Positions 28,516-56,392 of a DNA stretch of 64,000 nucleotides are shown in pieces. Where the stretch lies: positions 269,390,001 to 269,454,000 of the forward strand of contig OZ024743.1 of the NCBI GenBank assembly GCA_964016885.1, in the 5' to 3' direction. A program made the position numbers and the translations under genes. Each line of letters opens with the position of its first letter. The stretch's first letter is position 1. This DNA comes from Eledone cirrhosa. Its lineage: Eukaryota. Below the pieces are notes generated by a model, which made no database searches, was not told the DNA's origin, and saw only the letters and a program-made list of their open reading frames with translations.

Positions 28516-29977
28516 ATGTGAATATAGACATAGAATATTCGAAAATATTCTGTATGTTTATAATAAACATTTTGAAGACCTAATCGCTATAGAATAGAAT
28601 ACGTCACGTATTACAATTAGATTCTCGATAAAAGCAAGGGAAGTAATCTACGCGTTTCATTCTCGTTAGAAATCATCAGGACTACATATCCAGTGCTTTT
28701 ATCGAGAATGACACAGCTAGAGACTTATAGAATACTTAGCTGTGTACAGGAACTGGTTTGAAAGAGCGGTTGCCGGTCCGGCAGAAATTAGAAATTGGAA
28801 TAAATGCTCTGAAATAGCGATATATATGTGAATATAGACATAGAATATTCGAAAATATTCTGTATGTTTATAATAAACATTTTGAAGACCTAATCGCTAT
28901 AGAATCTAATTGTAATACGTGACGTATTCTATTCTATAGCGATTAGGTCTTCAAAATGTTTATTATAAACATACAGAATATTTTCGAATATTCTATGTCT
29001 ATATTCACATATATATCGCTATTTCAGAGCATTTATTCCAATTTCTAATTTCTGCCGGACCGGCAACCGCTCTTTCAAACCAGTTCCTGTACACAGCTAA
29101 GTATTCTATAAGTCTCTAGCTGTGTCATTCTCGATAAAAGCACTGGATATGTAGTCCTGATGATTTCTAACGAGAATGAAACGCGTAGATTACTTCCCTT
29201 GCTTTTATCGAGAATCTAATTGTAATACGTGACGTATTCTATTCTATAGCGATTAGGTCTTCAAAATGTTTATTATAAACATACAGAATATTTTCGAATA
29301 TTCTATGTCTATATTCACATATATATCGCTATTTCAGAGCATTTATTCCAATTTCTAATTTCTGCCGGACCGGCAACCGCTCTTTCAAACCAGTTCCTGT
29401 ACACAGCTAAGTATTCTATAAGTCTCTAGCTGTGTCATTCTCGATAAAAGCACTGGATATGTAGTCCTGATGATTTCTAACGAGAATGAAACGCGTAGAT
29501 TACTTCCCTTGCTTTTATCGAGAATCTAATTGTAATACGTGACGTATTCTATTCTATAGCGATTAGGTCTTCAAAATGTTTATTATAAACATACAGAATA
29601 TTTTCGAATATTCTATGTCTATATTCACATATATATCGCTATTTCAGAGCATTTATTCCAATTTCTAATTTCTGCCGGACCGGCAACCGCTCTTTCAAAC
29701 CAGTTCCTGTACACAGCTAAGTATTCTATAAGTCTCTAGCTGTGTCATTCTCGATAAAAGCACTGGATATGTAGTCCTGATGATTTCTAACGAGAATGAA
29801 ACGCGTAGATTACTTCCCTTGCTTTTATCGAGAATCTAATTGTAATACGTGACGTATTCTATTCTATAGCGATTAGGTCTTCAAAATGTTTATTATAAAC
29901 ATACAGAATATTTTCGAATATTCTATGTCTATATTCACATATATATCGCTATTTCAGAGCATTTATTCCAATTTCTA
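28516..29977. mobile_element. Small array of the 310-bp hammerhead unit: ~1.25 inverted units + ~3.5 direct units, in (TA)n
   Basis: HHRs at 28643-28685(-), 29151-29193, 29461-29503 and 29771-29813(+). Orientation switches at 28901-28905. Confidence 0.92.
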
Positions 29978-30021
29978 TATATATATATATATATATGAAT
30001 ACTTCATGAAACTAGTTCTGG

Positions 30022-51600: not shown

Positions 51601-54600
51601 GAGAATCTAATTGTAATACGTGACGTATTCTATTCTATAGCGATTAGGTCTTCAAAATGTTTATTATAAACATACAGAATATTTTCGAATATTCTATGTC
51701 TATATTCACATATATATCGCTATTTCAGAGCATTTATTCCAATTTCTAATTTCTGCCGGACCGGCAACCGCTCTTTCAAACCAGTTCCTGTACACAGCTA
51801 AGTATTCTATAAGTCTCTAGCTGTGTCATTCTCGATAAAAGCACTGGATATGTAGTCCTGATGATTTCTAACAAGAATGAAACGCGTAGATTACTTCCCT
51901 TGCTTTTATCGAGAATCTAATTGTAATACGTGACGTATTCTATTCTATAGCGATTAGGTCTTCAAAATGTTTATTATAAACATACAGAATATTTTCGAAT
52001 ATTCTATGTCTATATTCACATATATATCGCTATTTCAGAGCATTTATTCCAATTTCTAATTTCTGCCGGACCGGCAACCGCTCTTTCAAACCAGTTCCTG
52101 TACACAGCTAAGTATTCTATAAGTCTCTAGCTGTGTCATTCTCGATAAAAGCACTGGATATGTAGTCCTGATGATTTCTAACAAGAATGAAACGCGTAGA
52201 TTACTTCCCTTGCTTTTATCGAGAATCTAATTGTAATACGTGACGTATTCTATTCTATAGCGATTAGGTCTTCAAAATGTTTATTATAAACATACAGAAT
52301 ATTTTCGAATATTCTATGTCTATATTCACATATATATCGCTATTTCAGAGCATTTATTCCAATTTCTAATTTCTGCCGGACCGGCAACCGCTCTTTCAAA
52401 CCAGTTCCTGTACACAGCTAAGTATTCTATAAGTCTCTAGCTGTGTCATTCTCGATAAAAGCACTGGATATGTAGTCCTGATGATTTCTAACAAGAATGA
52501 AACGCGTAGATTACTTCCCTTGCTTTTATCGAGAATCTAATTGTAATACGTGACGTATTCTATTCTATAGCGATTAGGTCTTCAAAATGTTTATTATAAA
52601 CATACAGAATATTTTCGAATATTCTATGTCTATATTCACATATATATCGCTATTTCAGAGCATTTATTCCAATTTCTAATTTCTGCCGGACCGGCAACCG
52701 CTCTTTCAAACCAGTTCCTGTACACAGCTAAGTATTCTATAAGTCTCTAGCTGTGTCATTCTCGATAAAAGCACTGGATATGTAGTCCTGATGATTTCTA
52801 ACAAGAATGAAACGCGTAGATTACTTCCCTTGCTTTTATCGAGAATCTAATTGTAATACGTGACGTATTCTATTCTATAGCGATTAGGTCTTCAAAATGT
52901 TTATTATAAACATACAGAATATTTTCGAATATTCTATGTCTATATTCACATATATATCGCTATTTCAGAGCATTTATTCCAATTTCTAATTTCTGCCGGA
53001 CCGGCAACCGCTCTTTCAAACCAGTTCCTGTACACAGCTAAGTATTCTATAAGTCTCTAGCTGTGTCATTCTCGATAAAAGCACTGGATATGTAGTCCTG
53101 ATGATTTCTAACAAGAATGAAACGCGTAGATTACTTCCCTTGCTTTTATCGAGAATCTAATTGTAATACGTGACGTATTCTATTCTATAGCGATTAGGTC
53201 TTCAAAATGTTTATTATAAACATACAGAATATTTTCGAATATTCTATGTCTATATTCACATATATATCGCTATTTCAGAGCATTTATTCCAATTTCTAAT
53301 TTCTGCCGGACCGGCAACCGCTCTTTCAAACCAGTTCCTGTACACAGCTAAGTATTCTATAAGTCTCTAGCTGTGTCATTCTCGATAAAAGCACTGGATA
53401 TGTAGTCCTGATGATTTCTAACAAGAATGAAACGCGTAGATTACTTCCCTTGCTTTTATCGAGAATCTAATTGTAATACGTGACGTATTCTATTCTATAG
53501 CGATTAGGTCTTCAAAATGTTTATTATAAACATACAGAATATTTTCGAATATTCTATGTCTATATTCACATATATATCGCTATTTCAGAGCATTTATTCC
53601 AATTTCTAATTTCTGCCGGACCGGCAACCGCTCTTTCAAACCAGTTCCTGTACACAGCTAAGTATTCTATAAGTCTCTAGCTGTGTCATTCTCGATAAAA
53701 GCACTGGATATGTAGTCCTGATGATTTCTAACAAGAATGAAACGCGTAGATTACTTCCCTTGCTTTTATCGAGAATCTAATTGTAATACGTGACGTATTC
53801 TATTCTATAGCGATTAGGTCTTCAAAATGTTTATTATAAACATACAGAATATTTTCGAATATTCTATGTCTATATTCACATATATATCGCTATTTCAGAG
53901 CATTTATTCCAATTTCTAATTTCTGCCGGACCGGCAACCGCTCTTTCAAACCAGTTCCTGTACACAGCTAAGTATTCTATAAGTCTCTAGCTGTGTCATT
54001 CTCGATAAAAGCACTGGATATGTAGTCCTGATGATTTCTAACAAGAATGAAACGCGTAGATTACTTCCCTTGCTTTTATCGAGAATCTAATTGTAATACG
54101 TGACGTATTCTATTCTATAGCGATTAGGTCTTCAAACTGTTTATTATAAACATACAGAATATTTTCGAATATTCTATGTCTATATTCACATATATATCGC
54201 TATTTCAGAGCATTTATTCCAATTTCTAATTTCTGCCGGACCGGCAACCGCTCTTTCAAACCAGTTCCTGTACACAGCTAAGTATTCTATAAGTCTCTAG
54301 CTGTGTCATTCTCGATAAAAGCACTGGATATGTAGTCCTGATGATTTCTAACAAGAATGAAACGCGTAGATTACTTCCCTTGCTTTTATCGAGAATCTAA
54401 TTGTAATACGTGACGTATTCTATTCTATAGCGATTAGGTCTTCAAAATGTTTATTATAAACATACAGAATATTTTCGAATATTCTATGTCTATATTCACA
54501 TATATATCGCTATTTCAGAGCATTTATTCCAATTTCTAATTTCTGCCGGACCGGCAACCGCTCTTTCAAACCAGTTCCTGTACACAGCTAAGTATTCTAT

Positions 54601-56392
54601 AAGTCTCTAGCTGTGTCATTCTCGATAAAAGCACTGGATATGTAGTCCTGATGATTTCTAACAAGAATGAAACGCGTAGATTACTTCCCTTGCTTTTATC
54701 GAGAATCTAATTGTAATACGTGACGTATTCTATTCTATAGCGATTAGGTCTTCAAAATGTTTATTATAAACATACAGAATATTTTCGAATATTCTATGTC
54801 TATATTCACATATATATCGCTATTTCAGAGCATTTATTCCAATTTCTAATTTCTGCCGGACCGGCAACCGCTCTTTCAAACCAGTTCCTGTACACAGCTA
54901 AGTATTCTATAAGTCTCTAGCTGTGTCATTCTCGATAAAAGCACTGGATATGTAGTCCTGATGATTTCTAACAAGAATGAAACGCGTAGATTACTTCCCT
55001 TGCTTTTATCGAGAATCTAATTGTAATACGTGACGTATTCTATTCTATAGCGATTAGGTCTTCAAACTGTTTATTATAAACATACAGAATATTTTCGAAT
55101 ATTCTATGTCTATATTCACATATATATCGCTATTTCAGAGCATTTATTCCAATTTCTAATTTCTGCCGGACCGGCAACCGCTCTTTCAAACCAGTTCCTG
55201 TACACAGCTAAGTATTCTATAAGTCTCTAGCTGTGTCATTCTCGATAAAAGCACTGGATATGTAGTCCTGATGATTTCTAACAAGAATGAAACGCGTAGA
55301 TTACTTCCCTTGCTTTTATCGAGAATCTAATTGTAATACGTGACGTATTCTATTCTATAGCGATTAGGTCTTCAAAATGTTTATTATAAACATACAGAAT
55401 ATTTTCGAATATTCTATGTCTATATTCACATATATATCGCTATTTCAGAGCATTTATTCCAATTTCTAATTTCTGCCGGACCGGCAACCGCTCTTTCAAA
55501 CCAGTTCCTGTACACAGCTAAGTATTCTATAAGTCTCTAGCTGTGTCATTCTCGATAAAAGCACTGGATATGTAGTCCTGATGATTTCTAACAAGAATGA
55601 AACGCGTAGATTACTTCCCTTGCTTTTATCGAGAATCTAATTGTAATACGTGACGTATTCTATTCTATAGCGATTAGGTCTTCAAAATGTTTATTATAAA
55701 CATACAGAATATTTTCGAATATTCTATGTCTATATTCACATATATATCGCTATTTCAGAGCATTTATTCCAATTTCTAATTTCTGCCGGACCGGCAACCG
55801 CTCTTTCAAACCAGTTCCTGTACACAGCTAAGTATTCTATAAGTCTCTAGCTGTGTCATTCTCGATAAAAGCACTGGATATGTAGTCCTGATGATTTCTA
55901 ACAAGAATGAAACGCGTAGATTACTTCCCTTGCTTTTATCGAGAATCTAATTGTAATACGTGACGTATTCTATTCTATAGCGATTAGGTCTTCAAAATGT
56001 TTATTATAAACATACAGAATATTTTCGAATATTCTATGTCTATATTCACATATATATCGCTATTTCAGAGCATTTATTCCAATTTCTAATTTCTGCCGGA
56101 CCGGCAACCGCTCTTTCAAACCAGTTCCTGTACACAGCTAAGTATTCTATAAGTCTCTAGCTGTGTCATTCTCGATAAAAGCACTGGATATGTAGTCCTG
56201 ATGATTTCTAACAAGAATGAAACGCGTAGATTACTTCCCTTGCTTTTATCGAGAATCTAATTGTAATACGTGACGTATTCTATTCTATAGCGATTAGGTC
56301 TTCAAAATGTTTGTTATAAACATACAGAATATTTTCGAATATTCTATGTCTATATTCACATATATATCGCTATTTCAGAGCATTTATTCCAA
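45608..56392. repeat. 10.8-kb array of a 310-bp hammerhead-containing unit (retrozyme-like): ~9 units minus + ~26 units plus
   Basis: Exact 310-bp period. HHR at 45732-45774 + 310k (9 copies, minus) and 48442-48484 + 310k (26 copies, plus). Inversion at 48378-48380. (TA)n on both sides. Confidence 0.97.
48442..48484 (+). ncRNA. Representative type I hammerhead of the 310-bp unit
   Basis: GUAGUC-CUGAUGA-U UUCU AACA AGAA U-GAAAC GC GU-A-GAUUAC. Stem I is extended by a flanking 16-bp helix AUUCUCGAUAAAAGCA/UGCUUUUAUCGAGAAU. Confidence 0.88.

Follow-up and report, generated by a model that had tools for sequence, protein, structure and literature searches.

Penelope-like insertion anatomy in two arrays of a putative retrozyme in TA microsatellites

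Two tandem arrays of the same 310-bp unit lie in (TA)n microsatellites of the 64-kb window (the whole stretch of DNA analysed here), and their common architecture raises the question of how, and from what template, they were inserted. Unit positions are numbered with phase 0 at window position 28901. Both arrays consist of a short antisense arm placed head-to-head with a long sense arm. In the small array, which totals 4.8 copies, the antisense arm (28510-28905, minus strand) holds 1.3 copies with one hammerhead, and the sense arm (28901-29977, plus strand) holds 3.5 variant-free copies with three hammerheads. The large array totals 34.9 copies, with 9.0 in the antisense arm (45599-48380, minus strand), which carries a private variant A120G, and 25.9 in the sense arm (48378-56393, plus strand). 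The initial annotation had described shared outer ends, (TA)n flanks and a short minus arm followed by a longer plus arm, and this was borne out base for base in both arrays. The arrays are alike in the length ratio of their arms (0.37 and 0.35), but this was dropped as a feature, since it is not repeated in the array of a 467-bp unit described below.

The arms overlap at their junctions by 5 nt in the small array (AGAAT, 28901-28905; unit 0-4/30-34, which would form a 25-nt fold-back loop) and by 3 nt in the large array (CTG, 48378-48380; unit 186-188/124-126), confirming the annotated microhomologies. For random inversion junctions in this unit, overlaps of at least 5 nt and at least 3 nt have P = 0.009 and P = 0.067, respectively. 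All four outer ends fall in (TA)n, compared with a (TA)n content of 5.8% for the 64-kb window. The target tracts are located at 28374-28517 and 29976-29996, left and right of the small array, and at 45369-45608 (interrupted) and 56392-56435 for the large array; any target-site duplication would be masked by these repeats. The right outer ends map to unit 144-146 (small array) and 139-141 (large array), the chance of two ends lying within 5 nt being P = 0.035-0.05. Both left outer ends are found inside the longest alternating TA run of the unit (8 nt), at unit 107-115 in the small array and at 105-106, or 115 with one mismatch, in the large array, where one TG dinucleotide is missing. The one-sided tail measures 29-39 nt in the small array and 33-36 or 24-26 nt in the large array. 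A (TA)n target and a head-to-head inversion via microhomology, as originally proposed, are thereby supported. Insertions of Penelope-like elements (PLEs) have been described as having next to them an inverted copy with a truncated 5' end, joined mostly head-to-head, together with a tail of 30-40 bp and a (TA)n bias (10.1101/2021.04.23.441226; PMC3846280). All four traits are present in both 310-bp arrays.

Structural prediction identifies the unit as a non-LTR retrozyme with a predicted canonical type I hammerhead. The ribozyme, exemplified by the copy at 29151-29193 (plus strand; one of 39), is predicted to have a 6-bp helix I, a CUGAUGA core, a 4-bp helix II closed by U-U and a palindromic helix III, and to cut after unit 286. 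Its core is unchanged in 39 of 39 copies, and 5000 shuffles produced the motif once. The layout matches that of the metazoan canonical type I hammerhead, with a helix I of 6 bp, a helix II of 4 bp and a short palindromic helix III (PMC4209133). At the Rfam gathering threshold there was no match for the unit, HH9 being matched weakly (E 0.17, 15.8 bits versus a gathering value of 52). The circular fold of the unit (GC 0.34-0.35) is predicted at -67.8 kcal/mol (z -4.3, 100 shuffles), with a hammerhead-competent fold only 1.5 kcal/mol above the predicted free minimum. No ORF of at least 120 aa is present in the arrays, which hence lack an ORF for reverse transcriptase and GIY-YIG endonuclease; a 17-codon ORF ending at an array's right end was dropped as likely due to chance. 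By eye, no LTR layout is apparent in the arrays. Exact-pattern scans for the unit found none in metagenome contigs and none in viral contigs.

The back-to-back architecture is not peculiar to the 310-bp unit. A terminal fold-back was found in 12 of the 53 inter-(TA)n segments of the window, versus 0 of 150 shuffles, and every inverted element that contains a hammerhead core is head-to-head (6/6). A second hammerhead tandem family (1849-2953, plus strand; 467-bp unit, 2.3 copies; HH9 E 9e-7) lies in (TA)n, with a short antisense arm placed head-to-head at 1855-1885, while a third (747-1625, minus strand; 446-bp unit, ~1.75 copies) has a head-to-head short arm at 1535-1625. In addition, a fold-back remnant in (TA)n (15977-16174) contains a hammerhead core and has a 72-nt one-sided tail. 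In hammerhead core and helix II it resembles the 310-bp unit (26-28 nt, 89-92%), and this match is the one candidate in the window for homology between the unit and a PLE pseudo-LTR. The 446-bp unit is a homologue of the 467-bp unit (score 178 versus 50 ± 8, 0/300 shuffles); the 310-bp unit is marginal in the same comparison (62 versus 42 ± 6, 2/300), and its similarity to the 467-bp unit is not significant (25/300). The five long-arm ends of the three tandem families lie within ~10 nt of one aligned CATT...TAT tract, in a comparison made after seeing the data and in AT-rich sequence. Relative to the long-arm end, the short-arm end is 26-39 nt upstream in the 310-bp unit, ~110 nt upstream in the 446-bp unit and ~12 nt downstream in the 467-bp unit. 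As the short-arm ends are non-homologous across families, tail size may reflect where the TA run lies, and the match to the 30-40-nt PLE tail may be an accident of that location or chance.

A 5'-truncated PLE remnant (29997-30534, plus strand) is located 19 bp from the small array. It comprises the C-terminal part of a GIY-YIG endonuclease (29997-30224), a pseudo-LTR-like stretch and, at 30300, a hammerhead-like core, and ends in (TA)n. A 66-aa peptide of the remnant matches P0001 (E 8e-6) and P0002 (E 3e-5), proteins in which the GIY-YIG motif is preceded by a CX-CxxC finger. Among PLE clades with a C-terminal endonuclease, this finger is a feature of Neptune and Nematis (Craig et al., 10.1101/2021.04.23.441226). 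The peptide itself has no Pfam GIY-YIG match, and P0002 has one only at E 0.003; a word-index protein search with the peptide gave no match, and the Atlas offered no more than a lead to GIY-YIG (score 0.88, 15% of members). A Pfam scan of 116 non-repetitive ORFs, a set that does not include the remnant, detected no GIY-YIG domain. The sequence makes the remnant a candidate for the type of element that drove array insertion, and in 29997-30224 it supplies the co-occurrence with a PLE that is looked for in retrozymes. The 310-bp unit does not match the adjacent remnant, and the 64-kb window yielded no autonomous PLE whose ends share homology with the unit. The resemblance to the inverted pseudo-LTRs of PLEs that had been pointed out earlier is backed by this adjacent endonuclease remnant and by other hammerhead elements of the window that are built alike.

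Raw reads from another sample (run X22) were queried with one 310-bp unit plus 540 bp of right flank, and the joints and variants reported are the best-supported ones. The 540-bp right flank of the small array, corresponding to the PLE remnant, is a very high-copy repeat in these reads. Among the joints listed, a further strand-switch joint (unit 182/103) is present in 98 reads with one start, and is probably head-to-head. Read-end pile-ups were rejected as biology, as they fall on AATT sites and reflect the library enzyme.

We consider it probable that retrozyme RNA was inserted into TA microsatellites by a Neptune-type PLE enzyme acting in trans, with some later change in length. The PLE endonuclease would cut (TA)n, and the PLE reverse transcriptase would begin to copy the retrozyme RNA from a fixed point within it (unit ~139-146, which is 163-170 nt past the predicted ribozyme cut), several units being copied in a row to give the long sense arm. 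A purified PLE protein was found to cut AT-rich DNA, to extend both strands and to start inside its RNA (PMC11167929). The template is likely, if only by a little, to have been an RNA circle rather than an uncut linear multimer. Efficient self-cleavage would leave few linear templates of 26 units, the expected fraction being 0.78^26 = 0.002 if 22% of sites are cut. The predicted cleavage-product end (287) is not among the six inner arm ends (unit 0, 30, 124, 186, 103 and 182), an observation that does not separate a circle from a 5'-truncated linear template. Within the same event, the nascent cDNA end would anneal via 3-5 nt of microhomology, giving rise to the inverted arm. The other target end would then receive this arm at the place where the TA run of the unit pairs with (TA)n, leaving the 24-39-nt one-sided tail. 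As the source of the inverted arm, cDNA fold-back is slightly favoured over priming from the second target strand. In the large array, the minus arm has no counterpart of any of the five plus-arm variants, and of 17 fold-back registers only one steers clear of them; this speaks against fold-back if the variants are as old as the insertion.

Variants within the unit bear on the number of templates and of copying events. At unit 271 (loop II), the small array has G in all of its hammerheads (4/4) and the large array has A (35/35), on both arms, in agreement with the array-specific base noted initially. The pattern is as expected for the single template that had been deduced from it, but is weak proof of one, given that G/A is polymorphic genome-wide (A in 887/1288 and 869/1196 X22 reads, or ~70%) and that a homogeneous donor of any kind gives the same pattern. 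With alleles at ~29:71, both arrays would be concordant across arms by chance about 1 time in 5. The further claim of one copying event per array is doubtful for the present length of the large array. The latter contains six substitutions in 10.8 kb, compared with none in the 4.8 copies of the small array; in its plus arm, copies 4 and 9 share T32A, copies 19 and 22 share A55C, and A61G occurs once. Such paired variants, 5 and 3 units apart, have P ~6e-5 under independent uniform errors. Their recurrence makes a single untouched copying event doubtful, and units were likely added to the large array, or exchanged within it, after insertion. It is possible, although we would not expect it, that the arrays are fossils of rolling-circle reverse transcription. 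Up to 26 turns (8 kb) of one 310-nt circle would have been copied by a PLE reverse transcriptase that was primed on cut (TA)n, with the second arm derived from the same circle, a start tract common to several retrozyme families, and recurrent variants due to repeated misreading at fixed template positions.

Alternatively, a short PLE-type founder of one to few units, with the inverted arm present, could have acquired nearly all its length by later unequal exchange, a process proposed for retrozyme arrays (10.64898/2026.07.22.740005). The spacing of the paired variants in the large plus arm fits such a history, a single founder would yield the fixed SNP, and the arms of other fold-back inserts in the window (20 to ~1070 bp) are far below 8 kb. 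However, a variant-free small array and six substitutions in the 10.8 kb of the large one would demand very fast expansion of both arms, and unequal exchange alone leaves the first tandem unexplained; we regard this history as unlikely. Break repair with a fold-back template switch is a further means of copying, by which an existing array or DNA circle might have been copied at fragile (TA)n without reverse transcription. Microhomology at junctions and ends would be accounted for, as would the near-palindromic junctions in 5 of the 15 fold-backs examined (spacer 0-8 nt). The strict polarity with respect to the ribozyme strand (6/6 head-to-head) and the long-arm ends of three families in one aligned tract argue against it, and the copied sequence seen is mobile-element-like only, leaving aside the insert at 38795-41834. 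Copying at the DNA level is improbable.

Twin priming generates L1 5' inversions, in which head-to-head arms are joined via microhomology as they are in the arrays, and the window contains two non-LTR reverse transcriptases (9677-11716 and 33664-34326), both with a Pfam RVT_1 match. Insertion by such LINE-type elements is nevertheless highly unlikely: in contrast to L1 twin priming, the internal sites of the tandem template at which the two arms start are recurrent, the unit has no poly(A) or simple-repeat tail of its own and no match to the reverse transcriptase elements, and the outer end of the short arm is 71-115 nt or more from the inner end of the long arm instead of beside it. We give equally little credence to the inversions or array lengths being assembly or library artefacts, for while near-perfect 10.8-kb inverted repeats are hard to assemble, mis-assembly could produce the paired variants and neither array junction is among the best-supported joints of the X22 reads, the junctions are asymmetric with flanks that differ between sides, the diverged arms of older fold-backs in the window (113/124 and 123/133) are impossible for a read artefact, and X22 raw reads carry a different strand-switch joint at single-locus-like depth.

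Retrozymes and their PLE link are already published; in our literature search, retrozyme arrays were nowhere described as bearing PLE insertion scars, and here three families carry them within 64 kb. In the accessible parts of the literature on animal retrozymes, including Cervera and de la Pena 2020 (PMC7229834), the integration route is given as a hypothesis, both as to the involvement of a circle and as to which retrotransposon provides the enzyme. With the arrays, the route by which RNA circles containing a ribozyme would enter animal DNA can be tested at the genome level. The G/A polymorphism of the unit, combined with two-armed arrays, makes the template question countable in one genome: arms from independent RNA molecules would give ~40% discordant arrays, and one template almost none. 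Array end positions also supply a start site for an in vitro assay, and the arrays bear on whether PLE inverted pseudo-LTRs originate by fold-back or by two-strand priming. Rolling-circle copying, if true, would provide the missing genomic proof of ribozyme-made RNA circles as a transposition intermediate.

Compared with the metazoan non-LTR retrozymes, as portrayed in the accessible part of PMC7229834, the 310-bp unit shares the tandem arrangement of 150-450-bp units, a GC content below 50%, the lack of protein coding, a type I hammerhead per unit, a self-paired predicted circle and a genome that also contains a PLE. With U-U at the foot of its helix II, the hammerhead resembles the axolotl HHR_Amex2 of the same source. 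Expression and cleavage are demonstrated there, whereas both would be predictions for the 310-bp unit; inverted arms, tails, fixed ends and microsatellite targets, all present in our arrays, go unmentioned in that part of the paper. Li, Clavereau and Pollet 2026 (10.64898/2026.07.22.740005) described non-LTR retrozymes as non-autonomous PLE derivatives on the basis of co-occurrence and pseudo-LTR homology, and ascribed retrozyme arrays to local amplification. The PLE link and multimeric arrays are common to both studies; their main text never uses the words tail, junction, target site or twin, whereas the evidence presented here is insertion anatomy. With Neptune and Nematis PLEs, the arrays share partial tandems, an inverted truncated copy, a head-to-head junction, the (TA)n bias, a 30-40-bp tail and, as would apply to the arrays, an internal start of reverse transcription. 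In contrast to these PLEs, they are without reverse transcriptase or endonuclease, run to as many as 26 units in one arm, and have a predicted canonical hammerhead where PLEs have a minimal form. The arrays are not an autonomous PLE, though their insertion is PLE-like.

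Mapping onto the 310-bp unit, with unit position 0 set at window 28901, bears out the architecture described in the initial annotation, namely arms, ends, (TA)n flanks and junction microhomology. The small array consists of an antisense arm of 1.3 copies (28510-28905, minus strand) and a sense arm of 3.5 copies (28901-29977, plus strand), the large array of 9.0 antisense copies (45599-48380, minus strand) and 25.9 sense copies (48378-56393, plus strand). The arms overlap at the junction by 5 nt in the small and 3 nt in the large array; overlaps at least this long have chances of 0.009 and 0.067, respectively, at random junctions in the unit. 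Both left outer ends lie inside the longest TA run of the unit, and the right outer ends fall at unit 144-146 (small array) and 139-141 (large array). The distance between outer ends is 29-39 nt in the small array and 33-36 or 24-26 nt in the large. All four outer ends adjoin (TA)n, which makes up 5.8% of the window. The (TA)n target on the left side of the large array contains, at 45450-45580, a small inverted repeat whose loop is (TA)n and which may itself be a minute insert of the fold-back type.

Each unit is predicted to carry a type I hammerhead on the long-arm strand, with a 6 bp helix I, an intact core, a 4 bp helix II closed by U-U and a palindromic helix III. This matches the canonical metazoan layout (PMC4209133). 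Of 5000 shuffles, one produced the motif. The predicted circular fold of the 310-nt unit has a z of -4.3, with a ribozyme-competent fold predicted 1.5 kcal/mol over the minimum. Rfam gave no match at the gathering threshold, and a weak HH9 match below it (E 0.17). The unit has a GC content of 34%, a tandem layout and no long ORF; by all sequence features tested, it would class as a non-LTR retrozyme as defined in PMC7229834.

An array-specific fixed SNP had also been proposed. Unit position 271 is G in 4/4 hammerheads of the small array and A in 35/35 of the large, and the arms are indeed concordant within each array. The site is nevertheless a common polymorphism, because both alleles are read in X22 (raw reads from another sample with the same species label), with A in 887/1288 and 869/1196 reads; by chance, both arrays would have matching arms about 1 time in 5 (0.29 x 0.71). 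Unit depth in X22 is about 2,100-4,200. These figures are among the matches listed when four runs were compared with one unit plus the right flank of the small array, a high-copy flank that dominates. A strand-switch joint at unit 182/103 (98 reads, one start) forms a third junction, distinct from the two in the window, and we infer from the AATT cut site and masked zone that it is head-to-head. Its depth resembles that of other single-start joints among those listed in X22 (88-107), and it could be a library chimera. In X4, a run with another species label, one 340-nt contig matches the unit with one difference over 295 nt (window 29668-29962). Its length, 310 + 30, would fit a closed tandem loop. 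A very young family common to both, a closely related source or a labelling problem may explain its presence.

Two other tandem families with canonical predicted hammerheads occur as short arrays that include a head-to-head arm. The 467-bp tandem (1849-2953), embedded in (TA)n, comprises 2.3 copies plus a short arm in inverted orientation; its first copy has A at the conserved G8 position of the core. The 446-bp family forms an array with an inverted arm (747-1625) and a truncated copy immediately to the left of the large array (45165-45375). These two units are homologous (0/300 shuffles); similarity to the 310-bp unit is marginal for the 446-bp unit (2/300) and not significant for the 467-bp unit (25/300). 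In a post hoc comparison of data already seen, the five long-arm ends from the 310-, 446- and 467-bp families lie no more than about 10 nt from a single aligned tract, which is pyrimidine-rich and precedes a GC-rich stretch. Such clustering would fit reverse transcription starting at a defined sequence, as in the anole PLE (Penelope-like element), where synthesis starts inside its own RNA and both cut strands are extended (PMC11167929). Between families the short-arm ends do not correspond in position, and the short arm therefore probably stops where microhomology to (TA)n permits. A tail of 30-40 nt may be a coincidence.

Terminal fold-backs occur in 12/53 segments between (TA)n runs of the window, compared with 0/150 shuffles, in a test of segments up to 1,500 nt, a limit that the large array exceeds. 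Among 15 candidates picked, 5 have spacers of 0-8 nt and 11 have one-sided extensions of 16-429 nt; all six inverted elements with a hammerhead core in the window are head-to-head. Additional fold-back inserts, the majority in contact with (TA)n and with family-specific one-sided tails, lie at 3408-4207, 8749-8906, 14496-14794, 14914-15191, 15816-15889, 15977-16102, 18835-19013, 33140-33227, 38358-38506, 44499-44770 and 44884-45103. Those at 14914 and 44499 belong to a single family, with nearly the same tail ends. A young inverted repeat at 38795-41834 (arms of 1,065 bp, 1064/1065 identical; 773-bp spacer; 137-nt one-sided extension) is flanked by (TA)n runs and rich in microsatellites, and may represent host-like sequence mobilised in trans.

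Comparison models for the origin of the arrays were L1 twin priming and DNA break repair. As inversion route, fold-back is slightly ahead of two-strand priming: near-palindromic junctions in neighbouring inserts and a 25-nt loop in the small array favour it. Two-strand priming is favoured by the absence of mirrored variants between the arms of the large array (1/17 fold-back registers is free of variants), provided the variants date from insertion. The single copying event per array that had been proposed fits the geometry as regards one insertion, and is less certain for the present length, given recurrent variants in the large array. Besides position 271, this array has six substitutions, two of them found twice, 5 and 3 units apart (P about 6e-5 under independent uniform errors). 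These pairs could stem from units duplicated later, from a heterogeneous linear donor, from mis-assembly or from the same misreadings on a single circular template; a multimeric circle could not give rise to them, as the variants show no periodicity. For a linear template of 26 units, all 26 ribozymes must have stayed uncut, with a probability of 0.002 at 22% cleavage per site or 0.2 at 6%, rates taken from axolotl monomers. A circle or later growth is therefore favoured over a linear template, but the anole PLE works on uncut RNA (PMC11167929). That rolling-circle reverse transcription of one ribozyme circle produced the arrays is, on balance, rather unlikely.

A PLE remnant (29997-30534) starts 19 bases right of the small array and belongs to a family of extremely high abundance in reads. 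A 66-aa peptide in it has matches in four proteins, at E 8e-6 for the best; Pfam gave no GIY-YIG match in the peptide itself, and the two longer protein matches have a GIY-YIG motif with a CX-CxxC finger ahead. The remnants at 15261-15664, 26734-26888 and 62460-62858 have the same 22-nt terminal motif, which occurs five times in the window with an ATG start and in-frame reading on into the tails. Other elements include non-LTR retrotransposon remains at 9677-12628 and 13482-14411 (minus strand; RVT_1 E 6e-18, zinc-finger C-terminal part), apparently of R4/Dong type, a presumably L1/Tx1-like broken LINE at 32413-35412 (plus strand; RVT_1 E 3e-16, zf-RVT), a Mariner-type transposase fragment at 25299-25514 (minus strand; Transposase_1, E 7e-6) and a single C2H2 zinc finger at 24158-24328 (plus strand; E 6e-5). 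The finger-preceded GIY-YIG is described as a feature of Neptune and Nematis PLEs (10.1101/2021.04.23.441226), and ATG-started reading into the tail is known from PLE pseudo-LTRs (PMC3846280).

We conclude that the array feature is real and that these are probably retrozyme arrays with PLE insertion scars. It has been hypothesised that PLEs mobilise non-LTR retrozymes, with circles giving rise to multimeric cDNA (PMC7229834, PMC7761336); a 2026 preprint (10.64898/2026.07.22.740005) added co-occurrence and pseudo-LTR homology, ascribing arrays to local amplification. Minimal hammerheads in opposite-strand pairs have been described in Schistosoma (PMC4209133). In the literature covered, mostly open-access main texts, we found no description of retrozyme arrays with inverted arms, tails or fixed ends; the novelty is the combination, the component parts being already known. 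The arrays offer anatomical evidence for the proposed retrozyme-PLE partnership and a way to test the circle model by counting. PLE insertions are described as having a 5'-truncated, inverted copy alongside, a tail of 30-40 bp and a (TA)n bias (10.1101/2021.04.23.441226); their junctions are mostly head-to-head, and one typical copy has a 31-bp tail (PMC3846280). Both arrays resemble them in inverted arm, tail size and (TA)n target.
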